From NCBI GenBank assembly GCA_018780035.1, contig JADMKE010000003.1, forward strand, positions 274,753 through 338,752: a DNA stretch of 64,000 nucleotides, in the 5' to 3' direction. Below the pieces are notes generated by a model. The model was given only the letters and a program-made list of their open reading frames with translations, did not search any database and was not told the DNA's origin. The translations under genes were made by a program, and so were the position numbers. Source of the DNA: Candidatus Sericytochromatia bacterium (lineage in GTDB: Bacteria > Cyanobacteriota > Sericytochromatia > UBA7694). This document shows positions 10,258 to 62,788 of the stretch, one piece after another. Position 1 is the stretch's first letter. Each line of letters starts with the position of its first letter.

Positions 10258-11666
10258 TGCTGATACCCGCCTGGGTTCTGGGATGTTTGATAGGTGTAAA
10301 GCAACAGTTTGGTCATCAGCCAATGTTGATCTTTTTTACCCAAGCCATCTGATAAGGTTAAAAATTCTGGCAATACCTGATTATTATTGCCTTCACTTGA
10401 TTTTAAGCTGAGAGAGACACCCAAACGAGAGAGTTTGGTATGCACCTTATCCACACGACGAGTCACCTGAAAGATTGCCGATTTTGGAATTTGAATAGGC
10501 TCAGGTGCGTGTGAGAATTGAATCTGCATTTGTTCAGGTAAAAGTTTGATTTTAAATGCTTCACCAGCCAAATTTATAAACTGAAAAATAGCGAAAAGCA
10601 TCAATATATTACTAAATATGACATAGTTCCAAACAATCATGCCCCAAATCTGATCATTGGCAGAAAAACTCCCGATTGAAACCAAACGTATTAAAATTCC
10701 AACAAACCCCGAATTTGCCAGCAGAAGAATGAGCAAAACACTTAATAGTGGCGCATGTTGTTGCCACAAATTGATTGGATTAAAGCTGGGTTCAAGCTGG
10801 ATCTGAACTTCATCTGCATTCCGCAGGTAAAGCAAACGCCCCGATGGGGAACGCTCTCGTTGATAGCTAAGAGCTTGAATGGCTTCTAAGGCCGCCTCTG
10901 CACTGGGCAGACGCTCTTCCAGATCGGGTACCATCAATGCTTCCAACAGGCGCTGAAGTTCAAGTGAGCAGGAAACATAGGGACGAAAGTCTGGCATAAG
11001 GTGTTTTTGGGGCATTTCACCTGGTGCGCGCCCGGCCAATAGGTGCAAAAGGGTCGCTCCGAGACTGTACAAATCTGAAGCGGGGAGAGTTTGACCGGAA
11101 AACTGTTCTGGGGCCATATACCCAAATGTACCAATTACTGTTGAACTGCCTTTGGCAATAAAAATATCCCGAACGGCACCAAAGTCGATCAGAAAGAGTT
11201 CTGCTTGGTCGGTCCAAATCAAATTGGAGGGTTTGATATCTCTGTGTATCACCGCAGGCTCATGGTTGTGGAGGTATTTTAAAATTTCAAATCCCTGTCG
11301 GGCGATTTCAATCACTTCACTCTCTTTGGGACGCCACCCCGTTTGCAATCGCTGAGCCAAATTGGGGCCTTCGATCTGTTGCATTACCATGGTCAGACTC
11401 ACTTGCCCAGCTGAGGTTTCGTGAAAATAATCCAACAATTGGGGAATGCGTTGATGTTGAAGTGTTTGCAGGGTTTTGACTTCCCGCTCAAAGAGTTCCA
11501 TGGGTTTCCAATCACTTAATTGCCCCATTTGCAGACGTTTGAGAATAACAGGTTCTCCAAAGGCATTTTGTGCGCGAAAAACTTCGCGATTTTGATGGAA
11601 GCTGATTCTTTCAATCAGTTTATAACTTTTTCGCCTGAAAGAAGCCTGTTCCGATGACGCCATCAT
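10254..11666 (-). CDS. Ser/Thr protein kinase with a C-terminal 2-TM module (paralog of the downstream kinase)
   Basis: 'VILKRL', 'HRDIKPSNLIW', 'DFGAV', 'GTFGYMAPEQF'. The C-terminal TM pair and soluble tail resemble the modules of 7429..10257. Confidence 0.7.
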   Translation of the reverse strand: MMASSEQASFRRKSYKLIERISFHQNREVFRAQNAFGEPVILKRLQMGQLSDWKPMELFEREVKTLQTLQHQRIPQLLDYFHETSAGQVSLTMVMQQIEGPNLAQRLQTGWRPKESEVIEIARQGFEILKYLHNHEPAVIHRDIKPSNLIWTDQAELFLIDFGAVRDIFIAKGSSTVIGTFGYMAPEQFSGQTLPASDLYSLGATLLHLLAGRAPGEMPQKHLMPDFRPYVSCSLELQRLLEALMVPDLEERLPSAEAALEAIQALSYQRERSPSGRLLYLRNADEVQIQLEPSFNPINLWQQHAPLLSVLLILLLANSGFVGILIRLVSIGSFSANDQIWGMIVWNYVIFSNILMLFAIFQFINLAGEAFKIKLLPEQMQIQFSHAPEPIQIPKSAIFQVTRRVDKVHTKLSRLGVSLSLKSSEGNNNQVLPEFLTLSDGLGKKDQHWLMTKLLLYTYQTSQNPGGYQQ

Positions 11667-13065: not shown

Positions 13066-13995
13066 ATGTATACCAAACGCGAATTTCCCCTGAAGATGAT
13101 CTTGCGCTTTACCAGCCTCAATATTCTGGCCTTTGCCCTGCTCAGTTCATCAGTGGTGGCGGCCTACCAATACCTGCATTTCAAGATGATTGCCATTCCT
13201 TTCTTGCCAGTCTCGATGATAGGGGCCGCCTTGGCTTTTTATCTCGGATTTAAAAACAACAGCTCCTATGATCGGCTCTGGGAAGCCCGCAAAATCTGGG
13301 GAGGGATTGTCAACGACAGCCGGGCCTGGACAGCCATGCTCAATGCCTATCTCAACCCTGTCAATGATGAATCACTGTCTGAATCTGCTCTGAGCGAGAT
13401 CCGCCACGAATTGGCCAAACGCCATCTGGCCTGGATCTATGCCCATAAATTTCAGTTGCGCCACAAACGCATGAGCTGGGAACACAATCTGTCTCACAAC
13501 AACCTTTACCGGGAAAAATTTCAACAGGCCTTTGGCATCGGCACCGATCTCAAAACCGATTTGCAGCGCTATCTGCAACCGGCTGAGGCAGATGCCGTTA
13601 TGGCCTGTGCCAATCCCGCTGCGCAAATTTTGAATAACCAATCCCTGGCCCTAAAAAAACTCAGGCAAACCGATGTGATTGAAGATTTCCGCCTGTTTGA
13701 AATGCAAAACCACCTGAATAAACTCTTTGAGCACCAAGGCAAAAACGAGCGCATCAAAAACTTCCCTTTTCCGCGTCAATATTCGATGATGGTCAGTTTG
13801 TCTGTGAATATCTTTTGCTTTTTACTGCCCTTTGGTCTGATCTCTGAAATGGGTTCCAAAGGAGATCTGTATGTCTGGCTAACCGTGCCCTTTTCAGTGC
13901 TGATCTCTTGGGTCTATTTTTTCATGGAAATGAACAGCGATTATTGTGAAAATCCCTTTGAAGGCCTGATCAACGACGTGCCGATTCCAGCATGA
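13066..13995 (+). CDS. Bestrophin-family (UPF0187) membrane protein
   Basis: Hydrophobic N-terminal helices and the family-typical 'FKNNSSYDRLWEARKIWGGIVN' motif. ~300 aa, the size of bacterial bestrophin homologs. Confidence 0.6.
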   Translation: MYTKREFPLKMILRFTSLNILAFALLSSSVVAAYQYLHFKMIAIPFLPVSMIGAALAFYLGFKNNSSYDRLWEARKIWGGIVNDSRAWTAMLNAYLNPVNDESLSESALSEIRHELAKRHLAWIYAHKFQLRHKRMSWEHNLSHNNLYREKFQQAFGIGTDLKTDLQRYLQPAEADAVMACANPAAQILNNQSLALKKLRQTDVIEDFRLFEMQNHLNKLFEHQGKNERIKNFPFPRQYSMMVSLSVNIFCFLLPFGLISEMGSKGDLYVWLTVPFSVLISWVYFFMEMNSDYCENPFEGLINDVPIPA

Positions 13996-16701: not shown

Positions 16702-18972
16702 ATGGCTGAGTTGCGCACGATCCAAAAAGCCGAAGTCAAAGACTTTGTCGGCATTCGCTATTTGCTCGCCCTGAGCGACCAATACGCAGTGATTCCCTAT
16801 CCATTGCGCTCTCTGGGCCTGCAGAACACCGACCAGGACCTGTTTATGCTCGTGATTGGCCCCACGGGCATCTTTTTACTCTCTTACCATTTAATCTACA
16901 AACGCGAACAATCTCAACACTACCTCACCCTGGCCTATGATATCGAGCGCAGCGCGGATATGCTCGAACACTATCTGCTGCGTTATCTCTCGGGCCTGCC
17001 GATGATCCGCCAAGCAATTGTGGTTCACGACGGCAATATTCAGGGCCAGGCCACCGAACGGGTGGGTTTTGTGGGCTGGAGTAAGTTGCGCGCCTGGGTC
17101 GAAGAAGGGCCTGTGATTTTGGAGCCCGCAACTACGCGCAAAATGCTTCAAGTTCTCAAAGCCGAATTGCTCTACCAGCGGGTCTTTCGCTACCAGATTC
17201 TGTGTGAGATCGACCGCTCACCGGGGCAATTGCGCTATTTGGCGATGGACACGGTTGAAGACCGGCCAGTGGTTTTAAAAGAGGTCTTTTTGCCCCAGGG
17301 CGCCTCCCACGAAGACTCTCACGCTTTGATTCGTGGCGCCAAATTGGCACGGGAATTGCAACACGAGAATATTGTCCAAGTTGAAAATATCGTGCCCCGC
17401 GAAGACCGGGTGTATATCGTCAGTGAGTGGTGCGAAGGTGCCATTTCGCTCCGCCAATACCTCGACGAACATCCCGGCACCTTGCCGCTGACCACAGCGA
17501 TTCAATTGATCAAAGACCTCTGTCAGGCCCTGATGGCGGCCCATGCCAAAGGCATTATCCACCGCAACTTGACTCCAGATAACCTGCTTGTCACTCCCGA
17601 ACACCGGCTCAAGGTCTTTAACTTTGACGCGGCCAAAAAAGAGGGCATGCACACCTTGCAAAGCACGGCCCTGAAGAAACTCACCGAAGAAAACCCCTAT
17701 GCCGACCCCGATTATGCCATTGGCACACACCAGGTCGATCAGCGTGTGGACGTCTACTCTGTGGGGGTGATCTTCTACGAATTGCTGACGGGAAACAAAC
17801 CCACCCACTACGATGAATTGCTCTGGGAACCTCCCAGCAAGCTGATCCCAGGCTTACCGACATATATGGACCGCCTGATCGCCCGAGCCATCAAATTTGA
17901 CAAAGACCAGCGCTATTCTACCATTCACGCCTTTTATTCGGCCCTCGAAAAAGGCACCAGTGACCTGATTGGCTCACGCTATGAATTATTGGGTAACGAG
18001 GTTCACAAAGCCCCCAATAGTTTGATCTTCAAGGCCCGCGATACCCAAACCGGCCAAATGGTGGCCTTAAAAAAACTGCTGGTGCCACCCACCACAGATT
18101 ACCAAACCCGGCTTCAGACCTTGCAAATGACCCTCGACCCGCTCAAAGAACTCAAATACCTGCAGCACAACGCCCTGGTGCGTGTGATCGATACCTTGAT
18201 CGAAGATGATGATGGTTATGTCGTGATGGAATGGGTCGAAGGGCGCAATTTACGCGAGCATCTCAAGGCTTTGCCCAATCACGATGGCCTCTTGCCCGAA
18301 GAAATCCGTCATATTGGCCTGCAACTCTCAGATGTCCTGCATTATATCCACCAAGAGGGCTATGTACATGGGGATATTAAACCCGAGAACGTGATGTTGT
18401 CACAGGATTGGAAAGTGACACTGCTGGATTTTGTGCCTTGGAGCAAACACGAAACCGGCACGCTGCAAAAGATCCCCAAAACCACCCGTTATATGGCTCC
18501 CGAGCTGCTTGAAGGCAGCCATGTGCCCGACGAGCAAACCGACCTCTTTGCCCTGGGGGTCTTGATGTATGAATTGTTGACCCACCGTTTCCCTTATGAT
18601 TACGCTCAATTGCGCAGCCAAGGCAAAGGCGAGAGTGGGCCCCGCCCGCTTCCTCTTGATGAAAAAGTGCCCGAAGATTTGGCCCAAGTGGTGTTTAAAG
18701 CCCTGGCGTTTGAACGTGCGGGTCGCTACAACAGTTTTGAGTCTTTTCAAGTGGATCTGGAAAACAAATGTGATGTTTCTGAACCTCCCGCCCGGCTGGA
18801 GGCTGCGATCCAGAGCCGTTTGAAGCCCAGCAATCACGATGACATTCCCCGTTTGGTCTGGGTTTCAGCGGGGCTGGCTGTGCTTTTGATGGGGATATAC
18901 CTCTTTCAAGAAATCCAGCAATGGGTCAATCCCTCAGATATTCCCGTTCTCAAGGAGATACAATATGAGTAA
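16702..18972 (+). CDS. NERD-like N-terminal domain + tandem degenerate Ser/Thr-kinase-like domains + C-terminal TM helix
   Basis: Starts 2 nt after the uvrB stop. The N-terminal ~150 aa ('DLFMLVIGPTGIFLLSYHLIY') resemble a NERD fold. Kinase-like 1 has 'HRNLTPDNLLV' and 'NFDAAK' (catalytic D->N, DFG->NFD). Kinase-like 2 has 'HGDIKPENVML' and 'DFV'. C-terminal TM 'LVWVSAGLAVLLMGIYLF'. Confidence 0.55.
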   Translation: MAELRTIQKAEVKDFVGIRYLLALSDQYAVIPYPLRSLGLQNTDQDLFMLVIGPTGIFLLSYHLIYKREQSQHYLTLAYDIERSADMLEHYLLRYLSGLPMIRQAIVVHDGNIQGQATERVGFVGWSKLRAWVEEGPVILEPATTRKMLQVLKAELLYQRVFRYQILCEIDRSPGQLRYLAMDTVEDRPVVLKEVFLPQGASHEDSHALIRGAKLARELQHENIVQVENIVPREDRVYIVSEWCEGAISLRQYLDEHPGTLPLTTAIQLIKDLCQALMAAHAKGIIHRNLTPDNLLVTPEHRLKVFNFDAAKKEGMHTLQSTALKKLTEENPYADPDYAIGTHQVDQRVDVYSVGVIFYELLTGNKPTHYDELLWEPPSKLIPGLPTYMDRLIARAIKFDKDQRYSTIHAFYSALEKGTSDLIGSRYELLGNEVHKAPNSLIFKARDTQTGQMVALKKLLVPPTTDYQTRLQTLQMTLDPLKELKYLQHNALVRVIDTLIEDDDGYVVMEWVEGRNLREHLKALPNHDGLLPEEIRHIGLQLSDVLHYIHQEGYVHGDIKPENVMLSQDWKVTLLDFVPWSKHETGTLQKIPKTTRYMAPELLEGSHVPDEQTDLFALGVLMYELLTHRFPYDYAQLRSQGKGESGPRPLPLDEKVPEDLAQVVFKALAFERAGRYNSFESFQVDLENKCDVSEPPARLEAAIQSRLKPSNHDDIPRLVWVSAGLAVLLMGIYLFQEIQQWVNPSDIPVLKEIQYE

Positions 18973-19642
18973 AGTTTGGTGGCTCTCTTCGGAGATCCTG
19001 TTAAAATCCCTGCCTGATGAAGACTATACCCGTCTTTTTCAATTGATGCACGTGGCGCCCTTCGACGCCAACCGTACGGTTTTCTCTTCCAGTTTGCCGG
19101 GTGACGTGATCTATTGCGTTCGCCAAGGCAGTTTGCGTTTTATCCAAAATACCCCCGCTGGCAGTACCCGGCGTTTGACCACTTTGATCAAAGGGGATAT
19201 GTTTGGCAGCCTGGATTTGGTCGATCAGGGCTTTCGACGGGCCCAAATTTCGACCGAAACTCCCGTGCAATTGTTGGTGCTGCGCAAACATTCTTATGAA
19301 AAGCTGATGAAATTTTATCCAGCCATGAGTGCCCGACTGGTGACTGTGCTCAAAAAACATTTGAGCCAAAACTACCACCATCACCACGAAATGCTGGCCA
19401 AGCAGAGCCGTTCCCGCATACTCAGACTCTTGCACCACACCTTTGTCCATCCCGATTACCATCCCGAAGCCCATACCCTGATGTCTTGCCCGTTGCGAGA
19501 ATGGGCCGAACTGACTGGCAGCAGCAGTGAAGCAGTGGAATTGGTGATGGAGAGCCTGGAAGAGCAGAAAATTATCCAGATCAAAGGCAATGGTGTACGC
19601 GTCTTGGAGCCCGCATTGCTTTTGGCACAGTCTCACCCGTGA
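18965..19642 (+). CDS. Crp/Fnr-family regulator (cNMP-binding domain + C-terminal HTH)
   Basis: 'GDMFGSLDLVDQG' cNMP-binding core. The C-terminal 'EWAELTGSSSEAVELVMESLEEQKIIQ' is HTH-like. Overlaps the upstream gene by 8 nt. Confidence 0.65.
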   Translation: MSKVWWLSSEILLKSLPDEDYTRLFQLMHVAPFDANRTVFSSSLPGDVIYCVRQGSLRFIQNTPAGSTRRLTTLIKGDMFGSLDLVDQGFRRAQISTETPVQLLVLRKHSYEKLMKFYPAMSARLVTVLKKHLSQNYHHHHEMLAKQSRSRILRLLHHTFVHPDYHPEAHTLMSCPLREWAELTGSSSEAVELVMESLEEQKIIQIKGNGVRVLEPALLLAQSHP

Positions 19643-20703
19643 TAGCGCCTAACCTGACTCGGTTGTTTCTGCTTGTGGTGGTATGGTTGGGACTGGGTTC
19701 CGCCTCCTTTGCTGCAGACTACCTCTCCTGGCCCAGCTTGACTGGCTTTGCCCGCTACAGCCCCCATGGACGCAAAATTATCCGGCTCTCAGACAGAACC
19801 CTGGAACTCTGGTCGGGCAAAGAGCCCAAACGTCTCAGGCGGATGGGGGTCTCTCAACCCCTGGTAGACGCGCAATACAGCCACGATGGTCGATTCCTGG
19901 TAGCGGGCAGCGAAGCGGGGGTTTATACCGTTTGGCGCAGCTCGGATTATAAACGTATTTTTGAACTCAAAGATCCCTCTGAGGGCCGTTCCAATCAACC
20001 CTTTACGCTCAGCCCCGATGGCAACTATCTAACTGTCTGTAAACTTTTCGAACGGACTGAGAACAAAAAACAGTGGCTGGATTTTTACTTGCATATTTGG
20101 GATCTCTCCAATGGCCGCAAGGTCGATACCATTTTTGTCTCGCGCACCCCCAACCGGATGCCAGGGCATTTCCCTGTGGTCAGTGTCGCATGGCATCCCC
20201 TTGGACGCTTTCTCACAACGGCAATGGAATGGGATCAGGGCGCAGGTAAAATTACCCCCACCTTTATCCAGGTTTTGGATCTCTGGCAGGGCCGGTGGAT
20301 CTATTGGGTGCCAGGCGCGCCGCCTGCAGAATACAGCCAGAATGGGGAATTCTTTGCTTTTTTAAGTCCTGTGGATACCAGCCCAAACCCCAAATGGCAA
20401 ATATCACTCTGGAATACCCGTGTAGACCTGTTCAAAACACTCAAACCCCAAGGTGATCTTTCGATCGATTCAGGTTTAACCGTCAGTGCAAAAGGCAATT
20501 TACTTGCGTATCTCGTGGCCTATTCCAATAATCAAAAAGCGGTGTTTGTGCATTCCACCCGGGATCTGAGTCTCAAAGCCCAGTTTCGCATTTCAGATTC
20601 AGCTGACAGTTTGTCGATCAGTCCCGACGAAACGACGCTCTTGGTTTCGAGCTTTTCAGATCCCACCTTTGCGGTCAGGGTCTATCCCCTCCCCAAACAC
20701 TGA
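19639..20703 (+). CDS. Secreted WD40/PD40-like beta-propeller protein
   Basis: Signal peptide 'LFLLVVVWLGLGSASFA'. Repeats such as 'YSHDGRFLVAGSEAGVYTVW', 'LSPDGNYLTVC', 'VAWHPLGRFLTTA'. Confidence 0.5.
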   Translation: MIAPNLTRLFLLVVVWLGLGSASFAADYLSWPSLTGFARYSPHGRKIIRLSDRTLELWSGKEPKRLRRMGVSQPLVDAQYSHDGRFLVAGSEAGVYTVWRSSDYKRIFELKDPSEGRSNQPFTLSPDGNYLTVCKLFERTENKKQWLDFYLHIWDLSNGRKVDTIFVSRTPNRMPGHFPVVSVAWHPLGRFLTTAMEWDQGAGKITPTFIQVLDLWQGRWIYWVPGAPPAEYSQNGEFFAFLSPVDTSPNPKWQISLWNTRVDLFKTLKPQGDLSIDSGLTVSAKGNLLAYLVAYSNNQKAVFVHSTRDLSLKAQFRISDSADSLSISPDETTLLVSSFSDPTFAVRVYPLPKH

Positions 20704-20706
20704 GCC

Positions 20707-21834
20707 ATGGGGCAAACGCGCAAATACCCCACCTGCTTGCTCGTTTGGCTGACTATTCCTTTCTTCGCGCTCTTATTGAGTTGCCAAGGGCAAAATGGCA
20801 CGCCTCCTGAGCGGCAATTTAAGGTCAAACCCGAAGACCTGATCAAATTTCGCCCCCCAGATGTGGGGCCTGCGATCCCCAGCCCCTTGCGCTTTGAAGA
20901 ACCTGTGGCAGTCTCCTCGTATTTGCCCGTCAACAAACGTGCGGCGGAAGTCTTGCGCACCCCCAATGGTTACCACCGCACCCGCCTCTTTCAATTGAGT
21001 GAGGGCATTCTCTTCAAACAGTATGAAATCAATGGCAAAAGCAGCCTGCCCCAGGTCACGATTCGCGCGCTGCGGATAGAGCCGCGGGCCTTTCCCAAAT
21101 TACAGGTTTTGTTTTCAGATACTGCCAAACGCCCATTGTATTTTTATAAAGTGGCCCAGCGCAAACAGACCCTGGCAATTATGAACTGGGGCTTTTTTGG
21201 CACCATACCTGCTGGAGATGTCTTGGGTCAGCGTTGCAGCAGACAGGGATTGAGTTGTAAGCCTGGGATGTTTTACAACTCTGAAAAGCGCACAGGCAAG
21301 CGCACGGATCGGCGTTATCTGCTCACGATCAACCGCCGCAATCAGGCCCAAATTCAGCGCGGGGGATTGGGGCCACAATCGCATAAATGGTACAAAATGG
21401 CGATGGGGGGAGGCATTTTGCTCTTTGACCGCGACCTCGCGTCTCATTTGTGGTTGGCCACGGGCCGCAAGCATTACAATTCCCTCTTTGCCAGCCCGCG
21501 TTTTAACGAATCTTCGATTGTCTCCCCTGGGCAGGCCGGAGATGTGCGCCGCAGTGCGCCCCGTTCGGCACTGGGGGTCATGGATGATGGTTCGCTGGTC
21601 TATATGCAAATTGGCGAAGGCAAATACCGCCTCAAATCGGGAGCCACACCTGCCCGGTTGGCCGTGCTGATGAAAGAACTGGGCTGCATTCGTGCGCTGA
21701 TGTTTGATGGCGGCGGCGCCCCGGTGATGGTGGTGCGCACCAAAAAAGGGCAGATGTTAAGCCACACCCACCCCGAACACAGCCGAACCTCAAATTATTT
21801 TTACAATTATAGTTTTTTGGTGCTGACACACTGA
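20707..21834 (+). CDS. Phosphodiester glycosidase family protein (DUF2233/NAGPA-like)
   Basis: Signal peptide. 'FNSE', 'MFDGGGAPVMVV' (DGGGS-type motif). Size about 370 aa. Confidence 0.55.
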   Translation: MGQTRKYPTCLLVWLTIPFFALLLSCQGQNGTPPERQFKVKPEDLIKFRPPDVGPAIPSPLRFEEPVAVSSYLPVNKRAAEVLRTPNGYHRTRLFQLSEGILFKQYEINGKSSLPQVTIRALRIEPRAFPKLQVLFSDTAKRPLYFYKVAQRKQTLAIMNWGFFGTIPAGDVLGQRCSRQGLSCKPGMFYNSEKRTGKRTDRRYLLTINRRNQAQIQRGGLGPQSHKWYKMAMGGGILLFDRDLASHLWLATGRKHYNSLFASPRFNESSIVSPGQAGDVRRSAPRSALGVMDDGSLVYMQIGEGKYRLKSGATPARLAVLMKELGCIRALMFDGGGAPVMVVRTKKGQMLSHTHPEHSRTSNYFYNYSFLVLTH

Positions 21835-21850: not shown

Positions 21851-22942
21851 CTATCTCGCCATCAAGCTCGCCAAGCCCAGCAGCATCCCAATGCTGACCA
21901 CATCCGTGGCCGTGGTCAGAAAAATGCTCGATGCAGTGGCCGGGTCGGCCCCGAGTTTTTTCAGGGTCAGGGGCACAACCGCCCCACAGACCCCGCTGAT
22001 CACACAACTGCCAATCATGGCCAAAAACACCACCAGACTGAGGATCAGCGCCTTGGGAGAATGCTGACCCGTTGCCACCACATACATGCCGATGGCGGCC
22101 ACCAAACCCACCAAAGTGCCATTGAGCAACCCCAAGAGGGCCTCTTTTTTCATCAGCTTTTTTTCATTGATCGATTTTAAATCGCCCAGGGTCAACTCTC
22201 GCAGGGTAATTGCCAGGGCTTGACTGCCCGTATTGCCCGACTGCCCTGCCAGCACGGGCATAAAGATCGTCAACACCAAAAGTTGGTTGATCGTGTCCTG
22301 AAAGAGTCCCACCACAGCAGCGGCAATAAACGCTGTCACCAAATTGATCTGCAACCAGGGGTGGCGTAAGCGCAAACTGCGAAGCCAGTGAGTTGCCAAA
22401 CGCTCTTCTTTTTCAACCCCCACCATGGCTCCCGGCAGGGCGGTCAATTCAAACGATTGTTTTTGCTCAGCAATCAGCTCGTCGTAGAGCCGATTGACCT
22501 CTAATATTTTTTGTTCAAGGGCAATGCTGTGGTCTTTTGCTTGCCGATGTAAGAGACGCACTTCGAGCATATTGTGAACGCGTGCCAAGACCTCACTCAG
22601 ATCAAAGGGCTTGCTAATAAAATCTTTGGCCCCCACTTGCAAGGCCCGCAGTTTGTGGCTGGGCTCTGAGGTTACCACCAGCACAGGCAAATAGCCTTCG
22701 GGGTCAATCTCTTTGAGCGCTTCCATGACTGCAAAACCATCCATACCAGGCATGATCAGATCGAGCAAAATCAGATCAAAGTCTTCTTTTTGCTGCAGGT
22801 CACAAACCGTAAGGGGATTTTGGGTTGCGTGCAAAGCCGTATAACCTGCGCCGCTCAACATGCGCTTGAGCAGCAACACATTGGCTTCGCGATCATCCAC
22901 AATCAGGATCTTGGCGTTGAAAATATCTGAGGGATTAAGCAT
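21851..22942 (-). CDS. Response-regulator receiver domain fused to an MgtE-type Mg2+ channel transmembrane domain
   Basis: N-terminal REC ('ILIVDDREANVLLLKRML...DLILLDLIMPGMDGF'), a coiled-coil linker, then MgtE TM-domain motifs 'PVLAGQSGNTGSQA' and 'GADPATASSIFLTTATDVVSI'. Its start overlaps the upstream stop (TAATG). Confidence 0.65.
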   Translation of the reverse strand: MLNPSDIFNAKILIVDDREANVLLLKRMLSGAGYTALHATQNPLTVCDLQQKEDFDLILLDLIMPGMDGFAVMEALKEIDPEGYLPVLVVTSEPSHKLRALQVGAKDFISKPFDLSEVLARVHNMLEVRLLHRQAKDHSIALEQKILEVNRLYDELIAEQKQSFELTALPGAMVGVEKEERLATHWLRSLRLRHPWLQINLVTAFIAAAVVGLFQDTINQLLVLTIFMPVLAGQSGNTGSQALAITLRELTLGDLKSINEKKLMKKEALLGLLNGTLVGLVAAIGMYVVATGQHSPKALILSLVVFLAMIGSCVISGVCGAVVPLTLKKLGADPATASSIFLTTATDVVSIGMLLGLASLMAR

Positions 22943-24564
22943 TAAGATTCGCCATTTTGGGTATTCATTTCTGAGGCTGCGAATTGCAGGGCCATATTCA
23001 GGATTTCGATAAATTCAGTCACAATGATCGGTTTGGTGACATAGCGATAGAAGCCAGCATTCATGGCTTTTTGAATGTCTGGTGGCATCGCATTGGCACT
23101 CAGCGCTATCACGGGAATATGTTGGGTGGCGGGATTTGCGCGCAAAATTTGCAGGGCTTCCACCCCATTAATATCGGGTAAATTGATATCCATCAGAATC
23201 ACCGCTGGCAACGCCTCAATCGCCAGGGCAATGCCACTCAGGCCATCGACAGCGGTCAGTAAATGGAGTTCGGGGCTGCGAGCGATGATCAACCTGATCA
23301 GCTGCATATTGGCAGGGTTGTCTTCGATGTACAGCAAAGTATGCTCTTGCTTTTCTTGCAAGCGTGTCGACGGAATCAATTCGGTCGTCTGGACCTCTGT
23401 TTCAGAATCAGGAGCATCCACCTCATCGAGTTCAAATTGAAAGATACAGCCTTCACCGACCGTACTTTCGACAGAGACAGAACCCCCCATTAACTCTACC
23501 AATTGTTTTGCCACCACCAAGCCGATACCGGTTCCCTCTGTGCCACTGCTTTCCTGGCCAAGACGGTTGAAAGGCATAAAGAGTTGGGTGATTTGGTCTG
23601 GACTGAGTCCATCCCCGGTGTCTTGGATACTCACCCTGACTCGCCCAGGCGTGGGGGTGGAATAATCCACATCCACCCTGCCATTTTTACAATTGTATTT
23701 GATCGCGTTGGACAGAAAATTGAGCAAAATTTGTTTAATTCGGGTCCAATCGCCATTGACATAACAGGGTTGCTTAAAAACAGGGAAAACGATTTGAATT
23801 CCTTTCTCTTTGGCTGTATGCTCTGTCATACTTTGGCATTCAAGCATGATCTCAGAAAGCGAAACGGCTTCCAAACTGAGAGGAATCTGGCCTGATTCAA
23901 TCTTTGCCAGATCGAGAATCTCGTCGATCAAGTGCAGCAGATGCCAGCCCGCTTTGAGGATGTGTTCGATGCTCTCTTTTTGGTTGGCGTGTGTGGGCGT
24001 TAGATCCGAAGCCATCAATTGGGAAAAACCCAGAATGGCATGTAGTGGGCTGCGCAGCTCGTGGCTCATACTCGAAAGAAATTCAGATTTGGCCAAATTG
24101 GCTTTTTCGGCAAAGGTTTTGGCCAAAGCCAGTTCGGTATTTTTTTCTTGCAGAATATCTGAAAGCACTTTGAGCGCCAGATGGTTTTTGACCCTGGCCA
24201 AAACTATCGGGGGGCTGATGGGTTTGGTGATATAGTCAGCGGCGCCGAGTTCCAGGCCTTTTTTTTCGTCTTCCATTTCCGATTTGGCCGTCAAAAAAAT
24301 CACAGGAATATGGCTGGACAGAGGGGAGTTCTTGAGCCGGCGACAGACTTCATAACCATCCATGCCAGGCATCATAATATCCAACAAAATGAGGTCTGGG
24401 GGAGAGTCTGAATAGCCAATTTTAAGGGCGTTTTCGCCGTTGGTGGCGACTTTGACCTTGTAGTGATCTTTGAGCAAATTATTCATCAGCGTCAGGTTCT
24501 CGGGGGTGTCATCGACGACCAAAATGGTGGCCTTTGGATTGGGGCCGGTCTTGTCTGGCTGCAT
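22942..24564 (-). CDS. Hybrid sensor histidine kinase (REC-HisKA-HATPase-REC)
   Basis: N-terminal REC 'ILVVDDTPENL', H-box 'SHELRSPL', G-boxes, C-terminal REC 'LLYIEDNPANM...ILMDINLPDINGV'. Confidence 0.8.
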   Translation of the reverse strand: MQPDKTGPNPKATILVVDDTPENLTLMNNLLKDHYKVKVATNGENALKIGYSDSPPDLILLDIMMPGMDGYEVCRRLKNSPLSSHIPVIFLTAKSEMEDEKKGLELGAADYITKPISPPIVLARVKNHLALKVLSDILQEKNTELALAKTFAEKANLAKSEFLSSMSHELRSPLHAILGFSQLMASDLTPTHANQKESIEHILKAGWHLLHLIDEILDLAKIESGQIPLSLEAVSLSEIMLECQSMTEHTAKEKGIQIVFPVFKQPCYVNGDWTRIKQILLNFLSNAIKYNCKNGRVDVDYSTPTPGRVRVSIQDTGDGLSPDQITQLFMPFNRLGQESSGTEGTGIGLVVAKQLVELMGGSVSVESTVGEGCIFQFELDEVDAPDSETEVQTTELIPSTRLQEKQEHTLLYIEDNPANMQLIRLIIARSPELHLLTAVDGLSGIALAIEALPAVILMDINLPDINGVEALQILRANPATQHIPVIALSANAMPPDIQKAMNAGFYRYVTKPIIVTEFIEILNMALQFAASEMNTQNGES

Positions 24565-24569
24565 GGGTT

Positions 24570-27500
24570 TTAGCTGGACCTTTCAATGGCCTTTTTAAGG
24601 GCAAGCAGTGCGGCTTCAAAATCATAGGACTGAATCTTGTCCTTGAGCTGTTGGTAGTGTTCAGGGAATGCGGTATTTAGGAGGTTTTCATTGGCAGCCA
24701 AGAGATCTCCTGCTGCGGCATCAGCGTCAGCCAGCAGGGCTTGCAATTGCACGCAGATCTGCTGGAGTTTTTCCGGATCAATTGAGACGGCCTTCAAGGT
24801 CTCTGCCTGTGGCAATTTTCTTTCAAGTTGGTCAATCAGGCTGTCCAATCTTTTTTTGAGCACCTTGATATGCCCATCGATCGCATATTTGGGCTTTGCT
24901 TCTTTAATGGCCCGTTCAAGCTTTTCTGCCACTGCCTGCAGAGAAGTGGCTCCAATATTACCCGAGACCCCTTTTAAGGTATGGGCTATTCGCTCTGCCA
25001 ATTTCCAGTCTTGAAGGGCCATAGCAGCATCAATTTCTGCAGGGACCGATCTCTGTCCTTCGACAAATTGATGCAGAATTGAGAGATAGAGGGAAGTTTT
25101 GCCCATGGCACGGCTCAGCCCCAATTCCAGATCCAAACCTGCGATCTGAGTAGGTAATTCCGTTTTTGCCTGGGTTGGCTGTGTGGCCTTTACAAAGCTG
25201 GCATCAAACTCCTGCGCGGGGATCCATTTTAAGAGCGCTTTCCAAAGATCTTCGGGTTCAATTGGTTTTGCCACATGATCATTCATGCCTGCAGCCAGGC
25301 AGCGCTCGCGGTCAGCTTGCATTGCATTGGCGGTCATAGCCACTATTGGTAGGTCCTTAAAACGCGGATCCTTGCGAATTTCTAGGGTGGCACTCACGCC
25401 ATCCATGATCGGCATTTGCATATCCATCAACACGATATCATAAGGGTGGGTTTTGACTTTTTCGACTGCGATCCGTCCATTCTCTGCCACTTCGACAGAG
25501 AATCCCGCATCACGCAATATTTCACAGGCCACTTCTTGATTGATTTGATTGTCTTCCACCAGGAGAATTCGCGCCCCTTGCAATGGAGCCAATAATTCGA
25601 ATGTGGCATTGGGCAAGTCTTCAAATGGGATGGGTTGTTTGAGTTTATCGCCAATAATACGCACAATGCCATCGAACAACATTGAGGCACTCACCGGTTT
25701 GATCAAGACATCGTTTAAGCCAATTTCTTTGGCTACGGCAATCACCTCTTCCCGTCCATACGCCGTTACCATAATCATCAGGGGCCTGTGATTGAGTGGC
25801 AGGCTCTTGATCAAGCGACCTGTTTCAATCCCATCCATTTCTGGCATTTGCCAGTCGAGAAAGACAATTTCATAGGGATTGCCCTCGGTATCTGCCTGAC
25901 CGACGAGGGAGATGGCCACAGGGCCAGATTCAGCCAGATCGACTATAAAACTCATATTGCCCAGCAGCTCACCCATCACCAACCTGGCATTTTCGTTGTC
26001 GTCGACCACAAGCACACGTTTGCCCTGCATATTGCGCGAAAGTACCAAGGGTTGTTGCTGTTCAAGTCCCTTGCCAAAGCGGGCAGTAAACCAAAACGTG
26101 CTGCCTTTGCCCGGCTCACTCTCGACGCCCACTTCGCCGCCCATCAATTCCGCCAGTTTTTTTGATATCACCAGTCCCAGGCCTGTGCCGCCAAATTTGC
26201 GTGTGGTTGAGGTGTCTGCCTGTGAAAAACTTTGAAACAAACGCCCGATTTGTTCTGCGCTGAGGCCAATGCCTGTATCGCGGACAGCACAGTACAGCAT
26301 GACCTCATTTTCGGTTTGTTGCTTGAGTCGCAAGACAATATCTATCTCGCCCTGTTCGGTAAATTTGACTGCATTGTTGAGGAAATTGATCAGAATTTGG
26401 CCAAAGCGCAAGGGATCTCCGATCAGATGAGCGGGAAGGTGTTTGTCTACATCAAAGACCAGCTCCAGCCCTTTGGCGGCGGTTTTTTCGGCAATCAGGC
26501 TGGCCACACTGTCCAATACCTTTTCAACTTCAAAATCCGTATGCTCGACCAGCAATTTGCCTGCTTCGATCTTGGAAATATCGAGAATATCGTTAATAAT
26601 GCTCAACAAATGCCGACCCGAGTCTTGGATTTTCTTAATATTTTCGCGCTGATGTGGCACCAACTCACTTTTGAGTGCCAAATAAGAGATGCCGATAATG
26701 GCATTCATCGGGGTGCGAATCTCATGGCTCATATTTGAAAGAAAATCTGACTTGGCCAAATTGGCTTTTTCAGCCAAGAGTGTGGCTTGCTCAGCCCGCA
26801 ACGTGGCTTTTTCCAGCTCGCTGTTTTTTTCTTTGAGCATTTTTTGCACAGCATATTCGCCTGTCACATCGCGAAAGACCAAGACTGCCCCGATGACCTT
26901 TTCTTCGCGGTCGCGAATCGGTGCACAACTGTCCGCAATGGCAAATTCTTCACCCATGCGGTTGATTAAAATGGTGTGGTTGAGCATGCCTTGAACCGTT
27001 CCCAAAAGCAAGGTTTGATGGATGGGTATGGGCGTGGGTAGGCGTGTTTCGGCATTAATAATCTCAAAAATGGCTTCGACAGGTTGTGCCAGAGCCTCAC
27101 TTTGGCTCCAACCGATCAGTATTTCTGCCCGTGGGTTTAAGAGCGTGATACGCCCTTCAGCATCTGTGACCAAAACGGCATCATCGATCGAATTCAGCGT
27201 CACTGCCAGTTTTTCTTCACTGGTCTGCAAGGTCAGATTGAGCTTCTGCAATTGTTGGTTGAGGTTTTCTTGCATTTCAAGGGAATGCTGTGTTTCGAGG
27301 TAAACCAAGTTCTTAAGCCGAAACTGGGTTTCGCGATGCAGAAAATAGCCAAAGATCAAGGCAAATAATAATATCAACACACTTGCGCTGATAATGACCA
27401 GAAAGAGCAAAAACATATTGGCTTGAAATTGAACATCATGGTTGGCCCAGGTGTTCTCTTCAAGCTCAATAAAATCCTGCATTTCAACCCGGATGGCATC

Positions 27501-27941
27501 CATCAGGCGTTTGCCCCGGCCTTGGTTTACATGATTCAGAACTTCCTGCATCTGTTGTTTTTTGCGTAAATCAATCAGCTTGGCCATTTCTGCTCGTTTG
27601 GCTTTGATCAGGGGCAAAAGCCGATCCAGATTTTTCTGAGCAGCAGGAACCAGGGACAATTGACGCAATTCTTTGAGGTGGACGGGCAGCAGTTTGTCTA
27701 CGGCCAGATAGGGTTCAAGAAAAACGCTTTTTCCGGTCAGCAAGTAGCCGCGCTGACCTGTTTCGGCATCACTTAATTCAATCGCAAGATTGTTGGCTTT
27801 ATTTAAGAGCAAATGGGTATGTTTGCGTTCGGCACCTGCTTCTTCTATCTGGCGAAAGGTCCAGAACAGGCCGAGTACCAACAATGCGATAAACAAACAG
27901 ATCAGAGACAGTGTAATACTGATTTTGTGGGCTTTTTTCAT
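24570..27941 (-). CDS. Large hybrid sensor histidine kinase (TM-CHASE3-TM-PAS-HisKA-HATPase-REC-REC-Hpt)
   Basis: CHASE3-like periplasmic region '[12 protein letters not shown]', H-box 'SHEIRTPMN', two REC domains, C-terminal Hpt '[12 protein letters not shown]'. 1123 aa. Confidence 0.8.
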
Positions 27942-27949
27942 GGGGACAC

Positions 27950-28200
27950 AGCCTTTGGCTAGATGCCTTTTTTTAGGGCGAAAGAGAGGCTCTCTGAGGC
28001 TATTTGAGCTAATTTAGATAGAGATTTGAGATTTAAGAGAATGCTTAAAGTAGAGAGAGGCCAAATAGAGTTGATTAAAAAATAAATATAATAAAAAAAT
28101 AAAATGATTATAAATAAATATTAGCATATTTATTTGAATAATTCGTATTTTTTCTGAAAATAAATTATTCTAAAGATTGAGAAGGGGTTTTAAAAAATGC
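27950..28200 (-). promoter_or_regulatory. AT-rich promoter-like region upstream of the hybrid-kinase operon
   Basis: About 250 nt at well below local GC ('aataaatataataaaaaaataaaatgattataaataaatattagcatatttatttgaataattcg') directly 5' of the minus-strand gene that starts at 27941. Confidence 0.35.
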
Positions 28201-28241
28201 AAAAAAAGCCACAAGCCCTTTCAGAGAGTGGGCTTGTGGCT
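28201..28241 (-). terminator. Rho-independent terminator for the 28321..28716 gene
   Basis: Perfect 11-bp inverted repeat gccacaagccc/gggcttgtggc with an 11-nt loop, followed on the minus strand by a 7-nt U-run. Confidence 0.5.
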
Positions 28242-28320
28242 CTCATTTTAAATTTTAAATCGGAACTCTGGCGACAGGGATTAGCTGTTCGCAAGTTTGG
28301 ATTGATTCAGCTTTTGAAAC

Positions 28321-38634: not shown

Positions 38635-40110
38635 ATGAAACTGAATCAGATTCTGAAAATGGCCGAAAAATTGCGGGCGCGGCCCGATGCCACGGTCAAT
38701 CACGCAGGCGCCCTGGCGTTTAAACCCAGTTCACAGCTTGATCTGTATTTGAGAGCCTGCACCTGCCTGGTAGAAGACCGCTTTTATACCAAAGCCGATC
38801 AGCAATTGACCGAATTGCGTACTGCGATTCAAGCCTGTGAGCGCAGCTATGTGCTCAAATTGGCGAATTATACCCGCAATCAGATGCATCTGCGCACCCT
38901 GCCTATGATTCTCTTGGCTGAAGCCTCTGTAATGTTTAGTGGCGACAGCAAAGAGGCCAAAAATGATGTGCGCAGCTATGTGCCCAAAGTCGTAAAACGG
39001 GCCGATGAACCCGGTGAATTGCTGGCCTATTGGATCCGCCGCGTGGGCGAAGGCAGCAAAGCCAAATTGCCCAATGCCTTAAAAAAAGGCCTGTCGGATG
39101 CCTTGCGCCGCTTTGATGAATACCAATTGGCCAAATACAACCGCGCTGGCGAAGTCAAATTGCGCGATGTGCTGATGCTGACCCATGCCCGGCCTGATAG
39201 CCCTGAGCGCGCAGCCCTCTACAAACGGGTCTTGGAGGACAAATTGGCCACCCCAGAAACCTGGGAAGTGCTGATCTCCACCCAAGGTGCCAGTGCAGAG
39301 ACCTGGAATAAAATCGCGCCCAAAATGGGGATCATGGCTCTGCTGCGCAATTTGCGCAATTTTGAGCAGCACAAGGCTGAAATTGCTTTGGCCCATGCCA
39401 TGAAGGTCTTTCGCGATCCTGAAAAGGTGCGCGAGAGCCAATTGCTGCCTTTTCGCTGGCTGGCTGCTGAGCGCGAAGTCAGTGGCAATGCACTCAAAGA
39501 GGCACTGCGTGAGGCGATGAATCTGTCCTTGGCCAATGTGCCTGTTTGGCAGGGAAAAACCGCTGTCTTTGTGGACCTGAGTGGTTCTATGAGTGGCGCC
39601 CTGTCTGCCCGCAGCAAAGTGATGTATATCGACGTGGCAAGCCTGATGGGGGCCATGGCAACCCGTCTGTCTCAGGGAGAATACCTGGTGGGTGGCTTCG
39701 GCGAAAGCTATCAGGATATTCCTGTCGCCCGCAGCGACAGCGTTTTGAGCAATGCCAATAAAATTCGCAAAACCGACGTGGGGCACAGCACCAACGCCTG
39801 GTTGACGATTCGGGCCTTGCGCAAACGCAAACAGGTCTTTGACCGGGTATTGCTTTTCAGCGATATGCAGTGCTACAGCACCCACTGGGGAAATGAATCT
39901 CTGGTCGAGGAGTGGCAACGCTATCGCAGAGAGGTCAATCCCCAGGCCATTTTGTACTCAGTTGATCTGGCTGGCTATGGCCAAATGCAATTTCCCCAGG
40001 ATGATTCTGGGGTGGTGCAATTGGCAGGTTGGTCAGATCGGGTTCTGGATTTGGTGGCAGCTTTAGAAAGGGGGCAAAGTGTCGTGGATCTGATCGAAGC
40101 TGAGTTTTGA
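38635..40110 (+). CDS. rsr: Ro60/TROVE-domain protein with C-terminal vWA (MIDAS) domain (Rsr ortholog)
   Basis: Start at ATG 38635, preceded by 'gaggtaagcaaa'. About 490 aa. N-terminal 'TVNHAGALAFKP...LANYTRNQMHLRTLPMILLAEA'. C-terminal vWA with MIDAS 'VFVDLSGSMSG ... FSDMQ'. The upstream 150 nt of the track ORF overlap a tRNA-like gene and are not coding. Confidence 0.7.
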   Translation: MKLNQILKMAEKLRARPDATVNHAGALAFKPSSQLDLYLRACTCLVEDRFYTKADQQLTELRTAIQACERSYVLKLANYTRNQMHLRTLPMILLAEASVMFSGDSKEAKNDVRSYVPKVVKRADEPGELLAYWIRRVGEGSKAKLPNALKKGLSDALRRFDEYQLAKYNRAGEVKLRDVLMLTHARPDSPERAALYKRVLEDKLATPETWEVLISTQGASAETWNKIAPKMGIMALLRNLRNFEQHKAEIALAHAMKVFRDPEKVRESQLLPFRWLAAEREVSGNALKEALREAMNLSLANVPVWQGKTAVFVDLSGSMSGALSARSKVMYIDVASLMGAMATRLSQGEYLVGGFGESYQDIPVARSDSVLSNANKIRKTDVGHSTNAWLTIRALRKRKQVFDRVLLFSDMQCYSTHWGNESLVEEWQRYRREVNPQAILYSVDLAGYGQMQFPQDDSGVVQLAGWSDRVLDLVAALERGQSVVDLIEAEF

Positions 40111-57177: not shown

Positions 57178-58557
57178 TTATTTGGGGGCTGCCAGGATCG
57201 ACAGAGCATCCCAAGCGGAAAAAATCCCTTTGACCTTGTGCAAATGGGTGATCACCAGATGGCTCAGTTGGTGATCTACCATCTGTTTGCAGGCTTCTTG
57301 CACCGTACAATCTGGCGCAATTTCCATCATCGCTTGGTTGTCCATAAAATCCCTGACCGGCAGATCCAGAACTGCCATGGGATCTTCTTGCACCATGACA
57401 CCATTGTCGAAGGAAGTGAGCATTTTCTGAGAAAAGGTATAAGAAAAAATATCCGACATGCTGATCAATCCCAAATAGCGCATGCTTTGGTAGTCCACGA
57501 TCGGAACCGCAGAAATTTGGCGTTTGTGGCAGAGTCCTGCAAATTGTTCAACGGTGGTTGAATCCACAACGCAGGCCACATTTTTGGACATCACATCGGA
57601 CATTCTTAAAACACCGTCCTGAGACTCTGGATAATCTTCATTGGGTTCAACCACCACTTGGTGATCTTCGCCTTTTCGGGATTCTTGAATTCGCTTCATA
57701 ATGGCGGCAACAATCTCGTGGGGCGTCTGTCTCTGTTTTTCTGCGGGTGCGGCTACTTTTGTTTGTTCGGCATAGTGTTTTTGCAATGCCTCTTTGGTGT
57801 ACTCCCATTTTTCAGTTTGCTCGTCTTGTGCAACTGATTCGTCTGGGGATTTGTCTTGAGCTGGCGTCTGGGTTTGGGCGTGGGTTGATTTTCGCTCAGG
57901 TGCTTGTGCTGCATGGTAAGGATCATTGTCTGTGAAATTACGCTCGGTCTCTTGAGCCGCATGGTAGGGGTCCGATTGGCGGGAATCTATTTGTTCGGGT
58001 TGATCGCTGGGGTTTACGGCTGGCTGGACAGCAGCTTTAGCTTGAGCGGGTGCAGGCGTTTCAACTGGCATCTTGCCTTGGACACTCGATTCTTGAACCG
58101 GGGTTTCTTGGGCGTGGCCAGACTGGGCTGGTGCAGTTTGAGCAGGGGCAGTCTGAACAGGTTCAGCGTGGGTGGGTGCAGCTTGAGCAGGTTCAGCGTG
58201 GGTGGGTGCAGCTTGAGCAGGTTCAGTTTGAGCAGGTTCAGCTTGGACAGGGGCAGTTTGAGCAGGTTCAGCGTGGGCGGGTGCAGTTTGAGCGGGTTCA
58301 GTTTGAGCGGGTTCAGTTTGAGCGGGTTCAGTTTGGGCGGGTGCAGTTTGGGCAGGGGCAGTTTGAGCAGGTGCTGCTTTGGCCGCTGCCGCTTGGGCAG
58401 ATAGGGCTTGCTCACTTTCGCTCTCTGGCTCAAGGGTCTGAGCGTTGGCAAAGGTTACCAGCTCGATGCTGTTTTGCTTTTTTTCTTGAGTGGGAGGTCC
58501 CTGTGCTTTTTTTATCTCATTTTTGACTGTTGATTTCTTGTAATTAACTTTACTCAT
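57178..58557 (-). CDS. CBS-domain-pair protein with N-terminal (AQTEP)n low-complexity repeats
   Basis: C-terminal tandem CBS domains ('ACVVDSTTVEQ...ISAVPIVD', 'MMEIAPDCTVQEACKQMVDHQLSHLVITH'). The N-terminal half is 'APAQTAPAQTEPAQTEPAQTEPAQTAPAHAEPAQTAP...'. Confidence 0.6.
   Translation of the reverse strand: MSKVNYKKSTVKNEIKKAQGPPTQEKKQNSIELVTFANAQTLEPESESEQALSAQAAAAKAAPAQTAPAQTAPAQTEPAQTEPAQTEPAQTAPAHAEPAQTAPVQAEPAQTEPAQAAPTHAEPAQAAPTHAEPVQTAPAQTAPAQSGHAQETPVQESSVQGKMPVETPAPAQAKAAVQPAVNPSDQPEQIDSRQSDPYHAAQETERNFTDNDPYHAAQAPERKSTHAQTQTPAQDKSPDESVAQDEQTEKWEYTKEALQKHYAEQTKVAAPAEKQRQTPHEIVAAIMKRIQESRKGEDHQVVVEPNEDYPESQDGVLRMSDVMSKNVACVVDSTTVEQFAGLCHKRQISAVPIVDYQSMRYLGLISMSDIFSYTFSQKMLTSFDNGVMVQEDPMAVLDLPVRDFMDNQAMMEIAPDCTVQEACKQMVDHQLSHLVITHLHKVKGIFSAWDALSILAAPK
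58130..58365 (-). repeat. In-frame 15-nt tandem repeat (gggttcagtttgagc-like, about 15 copies) encoding the (AQTEP)n tract
   Basis: Visible on the + strand as 'gcaggttcagcgtgggtgggtgcagcttgagcaggttcagcgtgggtgggtgcagcttgagcaggttcagtttgagc...gggttcagtttgagcgggttcagtttgagcgggttcagtttggg'. Confidence 0.6.
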
Positions 58558-62401: not shown

Positions 62402-62788
62402 TTAATCGGCGACTGGGCTGGACCAAAGACCCAATATTTCAAGTTTGTGGGCCAACATATCTTGGGAAAAAGGCTTCATAATATATTCGTCGGCCCCGGC
62501 TTCTAACGCTTCAATGACTTTGGTTGTATCGACTTCTGCTGTCACGATCATGATTTTCGTTTTGGCATAAGTATGACTTTGATGAAGTTTTTTCAACAAT
62601 TCCAGGCCTGACATTTTGGGCATATGCCAGTCCAAAAGAATCAAATCCAGAGGCATGATCTCAGAAATTAAATTGAGGGCTTCGACGCCATCTTTAGCGA
62701 AAAAAATTTCTCGAAAACCCAATTCCTTTAAGAAGGTTTTCTCTAACATTTGGGTCAACGAATCGTCATCTACAACTAAAATTTTCAC
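62402..62788 (-). CDS. Stand-alone CheY-like response regulator (REC only)
   Basis: 'MKILVVDDDSLTQ', 'LILLDWHMPKMSG', 'IMIVTAE'. 128 aa. Confidence 0.7.
   Translation of the reverse strand: MKILVVDDDSLTQMLEKTFLKELGFREIFFAKDGVEALNLISEIMPLDLILLDWHMPKMSGLELLKKLHQSHTYAKTKIMIVTAEVDTTKVIEALEAGADEYIMKPFSQDMLAHKLEILGLWSSPVAD

Follow-up and report, generated by a model that had tools for sequence, protein, structure and literature searches.

A conserved receiver-MgtE fusion at the end of a predicted phosphorelay operon in a Sericytochromatia genome: a candidate phosphorylation-gated cation channel

Two-component systems nearly always act through transcription factors or soluble enzymes, and the only gating mechanism established for MgtE channels is, to our knowledge, feedback by Mg2+ and ATP in the cytosol. 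The plug helix of TtMgtE (residues 246-263) joins the CBS domains to the membrane domain and stabilizes the closed cytoplasmic gate; the two plug helices shut this gate in a conformation that is set by the cytosolic domains (PMC5882242). The sole conserved acidic residue of the TtMgtE pore, D432, forms the selectivity filter (M1 site); with Asp at this position the channel is Mg2+-selective, and the substitution D432N abolishes Mg2+ transport (PMC4241985). A second point of reference is DgcR, a response regulator of Leptospira in which a receiver precedes a GGDEF domain. Modification with BeF3- (pseudo-phosphorylation) repacks its receiver dimer and switches the register of the coiled-coil, and GGDEF cyclases act as dimers (PMC8041772). 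Here, we describe a locus in which elements of both systems are found in one protein. It lies in a 64,000-nucleotide stretch of a genome of Candidatus Sericytochromatia bacterium (assembly GCA_018780035.1, contig JADMKE010000003.1, positions 274,753 to 338,752), referred to below as the window, where three adjacent genes encode two hybrid kinases, HK1 and HK2, and a response regulator, REC-MgtE, whose receiver domain (REC) is joined to an MgtE pore. We hold it to be probable, although well short of certain, that REC-MgtE is a dimeric channel in which cation flux is gated by phosphorylation of the receiver through a coiled-coil.

Both halves of the fusion are recovered by Pfam. Response_reg covers residues 12-122 (87.6 bits against a cut-off of 30.2) and MgtE (PF01769) residues 228-357, where the full profile is matched (positions 1-125 of 125; 100.7 bits against a cut-off of 27.6, E-value 9.1e-29); MgtE_N and CBS domains have no Pfam match in the protein. 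The catalytic residues of the receiver, D16, D17, D61, T91 and K111, are all present, the phospho-acceptor being D61 (codon 22760-22762) in the motif DLILLDLIMPG. Homologues were sought in a collection of 5.8 billion proteins and the best 120 matches (P0001-P0120) were used for a family alignment, so that counts are given for 121 sequences; D16, D17, D61 and T91 are invariant in 121/121 and K111 is retained in 116. An AlphaFold model of the monomer, built on a 99-sequence alignment that included CBS-containing MgtE proteins and receiver paralogues, has a mean predicted local distance difference test score (pLDDT) of 85.9; an earlier run on 46 close homologues gave pore values of 50-70 and was not usable. 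In Foldseek comparisons, the receiver of this model matches CheY/DivK-type receivers with a TM-score of 0.9 and a root-mean-square deviation of 1.6 Å, and the top match of the whole model is TtMgtE (2zy9), followed by CheY-like receivers (~0.9), PleD, WspR and DgcR. A sequence-only reading of the locus had proposed that a phospho-acceptor domain with its conserved Asp intact replaces the usual N/CBS sensor of MgtE, and that the C-terminal domain is an MgtE domain. Each of these points holds: the receiver is catalytically complete where the sensor domains would be, and profile, sequence and fold all place the C-terminal domain in MgtE. Its further proposal, a channel gated by phosphorylation and not by the binding of Mg2+ or ATP, agrees with our preferred reading.

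The pore belongs to a particular kind of MgtE. Against the full-length model TIGR00400 (mgtE), residues 178-359 align to profile positions 269-444 of 450 and score 101.8 bits, the cut-off being 232.75. As the N and CBS domains are absent, it falls short of this full-length equivalog, and REC-MgtE is an MgtE-pore protein rather than a canonical MgtE; NCBIfam holds no dedicated model for it. A phmmer search nonetheless links it directly to the solved TtMgtE structures (4u9n/2yvx, E-value 8e-15), with D347 (codon 21902-21904) aligned to the filter residue D432. The segment PVLxGxxGNTGxQ is conserved with respect to TtMgtE and includes the motif PVLAGQSGNTG of the second transmembrane helix (TM2), at residues 229-239. 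Closer relatives are found among MgtE proteins with CBS domains, including those of Burkholderiales and Lysobacterales; residues 160-363 are 62-70% identical to their C-terminal part. The nearest representatives of the pore are proteins of 390-416 residues with a short N-terminal segment, a CBS pair and a transmembrane domain. In the relative from Tahibacter (L071), the homologous stretch EQQTFAISAQAGAMVGVEKEER stands directly after the CBS pair, and its counterpart in the window protein is EQKQSFELTALPGAMVGVEKEER. Homology to these CBS-type proteins begins at residue 160, and residues 155-167, which are helical in the model and homologous to the segment that follows the CBS domains in the relatives, are the equivalent of the plug helix. 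Since the nearest relatives of the pore carry CBS domains and homology to them starts at the plug helix, the fusion is best explained by a domain swap, and since the swap point lies just before that helix, the sensor domains would have been lost and the plug helix and pore kept.

Whether the ion that passes this pore is Mg2+ is less secure than the identity of the pore itself. At the filter position, 347, the family has Asn in 63 sequences, Asp in 49 and Glu in 9, compared with Asp in 55/55 of the nearest CBS-type relatives, which have Gly and Asp at positions 233 and 347. Because D432N abolishes Mg2+ transport by TtMgtE (PMC4241985), Mg2+ is not a safe assignment for the family as a whole. 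Variants with Asn-347 almost always have Asp at position 233 in TM2 (PVLADQSGNTG), a position that corresponds in the alignment to G325 of TtMgtE, beside the carbonyls of P321 and L324 that line the M1 site. Among the 121 sequences, the pairs at 233/347 are D/N in 53, G/D in 42, G/E in 9, S/D in 7, G/N in 6, A/N in 3 and Y/N in 1. An acidic residue is thus present at both positions in none, at exactly one in 111 and at neither in 10 (~8%), an association with a Fisher p value of 1.7e-24 that is not corrected for phylogeny. The Asp and Asn variants do not form two clades, an arrangement that was considered and rejected, as the two states are interleaved and mean identity is 0.761 both within the Asp group and between the groups. 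To judge from the alignment, it looks as though the filter carboxylate has been relocated between TM5 and TM2, which would support a functional ion path throughout the family while leaving its selectivity open. Phosphorylation could therefore gate a pore whose physiological ion is some other divalent or a monovalent cation, with an ionic or electrical signal as the output in place of Mg2+ supply. To the polymorphic filter and the remodelling implied by a carboxylate in TM2 may be added, in favour of this idea, the loss of the Mg2+/ATP sensors, and with them of the feedback that a housekeeping Mg2+ channel would be expected to use for homeostasis. The window copy, however, has the canonical G233 (22244-22246) and D347, its pore is close in sequence to that of CBS-type MgtE, and TtMgtE, with the same filter, is Mg2+-selective (PMC4241985); we regard a different ion as unlikely here.

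In our preferred reading, phosphorylation-gated flux, the linker between receiver and pore is the proposed transmission element. The model contains a confident receiver and a confident five-helix pore, and between them a single uninterrupted helix extends from residue 115, in alpha-5 of the receiver, to residue 167, with pLDDT values of 80-92 up to about residue 160. Length variation in the main REC-MgtE family is confined to the linker: relative to the 377-residue form, the 363-residue form of the window is shorter by exactly 14 residues and the 349-residue forms by 28. Two members with a second type of receiver differ, as counted from their sequences, by 21 linker residues. Indels of 14, 21 and 28 residues are whole heptads, as would be expected if the linker were a coiled-coil whose phase has to be preserved. 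The resemblance to Rec-GGDEF proteins includes this element, as residues 10-183 match Leptospira DgcR (6zxc) in a sequence search, linker included.

The same combination of receiver and linker recurs beside REC-MgtE itself. At related loci, REC-MgtE is adjoined by response regulators that share 55-67% identity with it over the receiver and the beginning of the linker (through RVHNMLEVRLLH..LEQ); beyond this point, these neighbouring paralogues carry GGDEF, HD-GYP (HD_5) or class III cyclase domains, or else another receiver. Class III cyclases also act as dimers, and the same is assumed for HD-GYP domains. Such loci are, as predicted from their gene content, multi-output phosphorelays. We propose tentatively, and at slightly less than even probability, that ion flux through MgtE is a direct, non-transcriptional output of a branched phosphorelay, parallel to the synthesis and breakdown of cyclic di-GMP and the synthesis of cyclic AMP or cyclic GMP via the shared cassette. 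A second type of REC-MgtE, found in Myxococcales and Ca. Aalborgicola, has a receiver that is much closer to the N-terminal receiver of the window HK2 (75-78% identity) than to that of the window REC-MgtE (36-37%). It sits on the same linker and pore, the pore domain being 62-76% identical to that of the window protein. Receivers have thus been exchanged while linker and pore stayed the same, which speaks for the receiver as the element that regulates the pore.

These comparisons bear directly on a rival explanation, in which gating of the pore is independent of the receiver. The transporter would then be constitutive or otherwise regulated, and the receiver would be a membrane-tethered phosphate sink or docking site, or would control stability or localization. 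Branched phosphorelays are known to contain phosphate-sink receivers, the pathway here is branched, as seen from HK2 and the paralogous response regulators, and one divergent 328-residue REC-MgtE (P0122) has no transmission helix at all. A conserved linker and plug helix with heptad-quantized indels are, on the other hand, hard to explain without a conformational signal. The paralogues, too, use the same cassette to drive enzymatic outputs, and two different types of receiver have been joined at the same linker, so that we consider a receiver without influence on the pore improbable.

Information might also flow in the reverse direction, the MgtE membrane domain acting as a cation sensor or anchor whose ion occupancy alters phosphorylation or dephosphorylation of the receiver, so that Mg2+ status is reported to the kinases. 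The requirement of receiver phosphorylation chemistry for Mg2+ and the 10 family members without an acidic residue at either filter position would fit such an arrangement. It is nevertheless a very improbable one, given that receivers are phospho-acceptors with no known route back to kinases except as sinks and that the single pore carboxylate of the 111 other sequences argues for a functional ion path under selection.

The two genes upstream of REC-MgtE supply a plausible source of phosphoryl groups. In HK1, a first transmembrane segment is followed by CHASE3 (residues 40-163, Pfam E-value 4.7e-30), a second transmembrane segment, PAS (245-359), HisKA (396-461), HATPase (508-621), two receivers (about 642-760 and 792-903) and Hpt (955-1039, E-value 4.5e-11). 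The hydrophobic segments that flank CHASE3 indicate that this domain is periplasmic. The nearest NCBIfam similarities of HK1 are to BarA and TorS, both below cut-off. HK2 consists of a receiver (14-125), HisKA (158-225), HATPase (271-381) and a second receiver (about 410-525), and has no Hpt in Pfam. The phospho-sites are intact in translation, and the residue set of a His-Asp-His-Asp phosphorelay is complete: H406 (HisKA), D696 and D840 (receivers) and H987 (Hpt) in HK1, D62, H168 and D459 in HK2, and D61 in REC-MgtE. The genes are tightly packed. The stop codon of HK1 (TAA) is followed by the five nucleotides AACCC and the ATG of HK2, and the TAA of HK2 overlaps the ATG of REC-MgtE by 1 base (TAATG). 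This 5-nucleotide gap and 1-nucleotide overlap suggest that the three genes are co-transcribed as one operon. The sequence-only reading had described just such a set, a CHASE3 hybrid kinase with Hpt, a REC-HK-REC hybrid kinase and the fusion, separated by gaps of 5 and -1 nucleotides; open reading frames, strand, spacing and domain content (CHASE3, HisKA, HATPase_c, two Response_reg and Hpt in HK1; two Response_reg, HisKA and HATPase_c in HK2) all bear this out. A 380-nucleotide intergenic region lies upstream of HK1, and the 3' end of REC-MgtE is 16 nucleotides from a convergent phosphodiester-glycosidase-like gene (20707-21834). Consensus scans for promoters and terminators gave matches near the expectation from shuffled sequence and do not define the transcription unit. 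The coordinates are collected in Table 1. Elsewhere in the window, a stand-alone receiver of 128 residues (62402-62788, minus strand) is 31% identical to the receiver of REC-MgtE and could be a further phosphorelay partner.

Table 1. Coordinates of the predicted operon, its parts and the related genes discussed in the text (window positions, except for rows headed by a locus number)
Feature	Position	Strand	Basis or carriers
HK1, unorthodox sensor kinase, 1123 residues	24570..27941	-	Open reading frame and Pfam
HK2, hybrid kinase, 540 residues	22942..24564	-	Open reading frame and Pfam
REC-MgtE, response regulator with MgtE pore output, 363 residues	21851..22942	-	Open reading frame and Pfam
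REC-MgtE receiver domain, residues 12-122	22577..22909	-	Pfam, residue conservation, fold match
REC-MgtE helical linker and plug-helix equivalent, residues 123-167	22442..22576	-	AlphaFold model, family indels, homology
REC-MgtE transmembrane pore domain, residues 186-362, five helices	21857..22387	-	Pfam, phmmer, Foldseek
Intergenic region upstream of HK1, likely promoter region	27942..28320	-	Four weak sigma-70-like matches, at consensus level only
Tandem cassette paralogues next to REC-MgtE	L006 7930-12296; L017 112-4624; L002 5294-6319; L004 5841-6965		
Second REC-MgtE type	L021 10001-11134; L024 10001-11101; L025 10001-11047		Myxococcales, Ca. Aalborgicola

These elements can be assembled into a working model. 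HK1 would read a periplasmic signal via CHASE3, and possibly a cytoplasmic one via PAS, autophosphorylate on H406 and pass the phosphoryl group to its own receiver or receivers (D696/D840) and then to H987 of its Hpt, from which it would reach D61 of REC-MgtE. HK2 would be a second input, or a modulator that feeds or drains the Hpt of HK1; because it has no Hpt of its own, it should reach D61 only via that of HK1, or else act as a modulator or sink, and its N-terminal receiver may itself be a target of the Hpt. REC-MgtE would form a homodimeric MgtE-type pore in which alpha-5 of each receiver is prolonged as a coiled-coil that runs on to the plug helix. Phosphorylation of D61 would rearrange the receiver dimer and shift or rotate the coiled-coil, as in Rec-GGDEF cyclases, and this movement would displace the plug helices at the cytoplasmic mouth of the pore, so that access to the D347 filter, and with it the flux of Mg2+ or another divalent cation, is switched. 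As a matter of speculation, the phosphorylated receiver may correspond to the closed channel. Phosphorylation of CheY-like receivers requires Mg2+ in the acidic pocket, so a channel closed by phosphorylation would retain, in crude form, the kind of negative feedback seen in canonical MgtE.

Several observations weigh against this model. The window copy keeps Asp at the filter, but about half of the family has Asn. The model of the protein is a monomer, and its only region of low confidence, residues 166-182, is the loop before TM1, precisely where linker and pore meet. Heptad a/d scoring of the linker left two registers tied at 0.53, with no unique register, and for that reason was not used as support for a coiled-coil or a register switch. 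P0122, which was found in a library of 50% representatives, is without both linker and plug helix; its alignment gap of 46 residues is not a whole number of heptads, and alpha-5 of its receiver runs almost straight into the MVGV loop before TM1, so that coupling in this protein must work differently. Finally, many related loci have an HK2-like kinase only, with no Hpt nearby, which makes the route of phosphotransfer uncertain.

The fusion is not peculiar to this genome. All of the best 120 homologues (120/120) combine receiver and MgtE; they are 66-94% identical to the window protein, are mostly 377 residues long and have been named by automatic annotation only, for example as "response regulator", "magnesium transporter MgtE" or "CheY-like/cation transporter-like permease". 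On clustering at 50% identity, the family collapses to one 377-residue representative and one divergent 328-residue form. Homologues that match most or all of REC-MgtE occur at ~25 loci in species-representative genomes, and carriers include Gallionella (Gallionellaceae), Sideroxydans, Nitrosomonadales, Sterolibacterium, Moraxellaceae and Myxococcales, together with metagenome-assembled genomes of Ignavibacteriaceae and Spirochaetaceae. The closest locus is that of another Candidatus Sericytochromatia metagenome-assembled genome (L001), where a 97% identical REC-MgtE has the same neighbours as in the window: aldehyde dehydrogenase, methyltransferase, orf131, HK1, HK2 and the glycosidase-like gene. 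With an uninterrupted reading frame, the same architecture in >120 independent database clusters and ~25 genomes of several phyla, and this syntenic relative, the probability that the fusion is an artefact of assembly, frameshift or gene calling is next to nil.

Association with the kinases is likewise conserved. Of the 20 related loci whose flanks are long enough, 13 have an HK2-like gene on the same strand as REC-MgtE and upstream of it. In 10 of these the gene ends no more than 51 nucleotides away; in the remaining three, apparent frameshifts break it up or paralogous regulators lie in between. An HK1-like gene adjoins REC-MgtE in three type-B loci (L021, L022, L025), and an HK1- or HK2-like kinase is part of the same-strand cluster in 16 of the 20. 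Many relatives have CHASE3 in a separate gene and possess several regulators. The window operon, with its fused CHASE3 kinase and single output, is a compact, minimal form of this larger branched system, to which GGDEF, HD-GYP and cyclase regulators also belong elsewhere.

Other genes in the window deserve brief mention. Upstream of the glycosidase-like gene, a Ser/Thr protein kinase gene (16702-18972, plus strand) is followed by translationally coupled genes for a Crp-like protein (18965-19642) and a WD40 protein (19639-20703); together with the glycosidase-like gene, these converge on the operon. Within 12 kb there are two further genes for Ser/Thr protein kinases, 7429-10323 and 10254-11666 (both minus strand), and one of the three encodes two kinase domains. 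A bestrophin-like anion channel is encoded at 13066-13995 (plus strand; Bestrophin_2, E-value 2.9e-51). A CBS protein (57178-58557) was considered as a second Mg2+ transporter and rejected, as it has no MgtE or CorC domain. A gene for a Ro60/TROVE protein with a vWA domain (38485-40110, plus strand) lies directly downstream of a cluster of five tRNAs (region 37809-38526), where the Rfam tRNA model matches two elements that ARAGORN did not call, at 38211-38308 (98 nucleotides, 44.8 bits) and 38474-38526 (53 nucleotides, 33 bits, overlapping the start of Ro60). These may be tRNA-like Y RNAs of the YrlA type.

The expectation of the sequence-only reading that MgtE is an unusual output for a two-component pathway was right in one sense and not in another. 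In the literature, we found no paper on REC-MgtE or on the pairing of PF01769 with PF00072, although a passing mention in Galperin's response-regulator censuses is possible; in sequence space, the distribution of the fusion is that of a conserved family and not of a rarity. A 2025 preprint on the classification of MgtE proteins distinguishes N-CBS-TM, CBS-TM, TM, TM-TM and mini-N types (TM, transmembrane domain) and leaves receivers unmentioned (10.1101/2025.05.26.656215). As far as we could find, the architecture is visible in automatic database annotations but unstudied.

If the proposed mechanism is correct, REC-MgtE would be a two-component protein that conducts ions under the control of phosphorylation, a kind of channel that we have not found described. 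An external signal perceived through CHASE3 or PAS would act on cation flux within seconds, with no need for gene expression, and Mg2+ or another cation would act in the manner of a fast second messenger. The relocation of a carboxylate from TM5 to TM2 in half of the family would amount to a natural experiment in the re-tuning of a selectivity filter, and, with BeF3- or acetyl phosphate as the switch, this form of MgtE could allow open and closed states to be trapped for structural biology. The shared cassette, attached as it is to a channel and to GGDEF, HD-GYP and cyclase domains, provides a test case from nature for the question whether very different dimeric effectors can be driven by a single coiled-coil mechanism. 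REC-MgtE could also serve as a template for engineered kinase-controlled channels.

The component parts of this system are all of known kinds: an MgtE pore, a PleD/DgcR-like receiver with its coiled-coil and a phosphorelay of unorthodox kinases. With MgtE, as represented by the TtMgtE structures 2ZY9, 2YVX and 4U9N, the fusion shares the five-helix pore, the GNTGxQ motif of TM2, the filter Asp (D347, equivalent to D432), a plug-helix segment before TM1 and, presumably, a homodimeric assembly; it differs in having neither the N domain nor the CBS pair, with the Mg2+/ATP sites by which TtMgtE is closed, and in having a receiver and predicted coiled-coil in their stead. The kinases recall the unorthodox or hybrid kinases BarA/GacS, TorS, ArcB and LuxQ, since HK1 carries HisKA, HATPase, REC and Hpt in one chain and the His-Asp-His-Asp logic ends in a separate terminal regulator. 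Unlike these, HK1 has a CHASE3 and PAS input and two tandem receivers, a second kinase of REC-HK-REC type is encoded in the same operon, and the terminal regulator is a predicted channel rather than a transcription factor. The closest parallel for the coupling itself is provided by the Rec-coiled-coil-GGDEF regulators (DgcR, 6ZXB/6ZXC; PleD; WspR), in which a PleD-like receiver likewise extends alpha-5 into a long helix that leads to a dimeric output. True Rec-GGDEF proteins with the same cassette stand next to REC-MgtE at related loci, and the linker indels of the main family are whole heptads, although a/d scoring selects no single register and P0122 lacks the linker. In DgcR, a register switch is known and the output is a soluble enzyme, whereas the helix of REC-MgtE ends in the plug helix of an MgtE and the output is a pore in the membrane.

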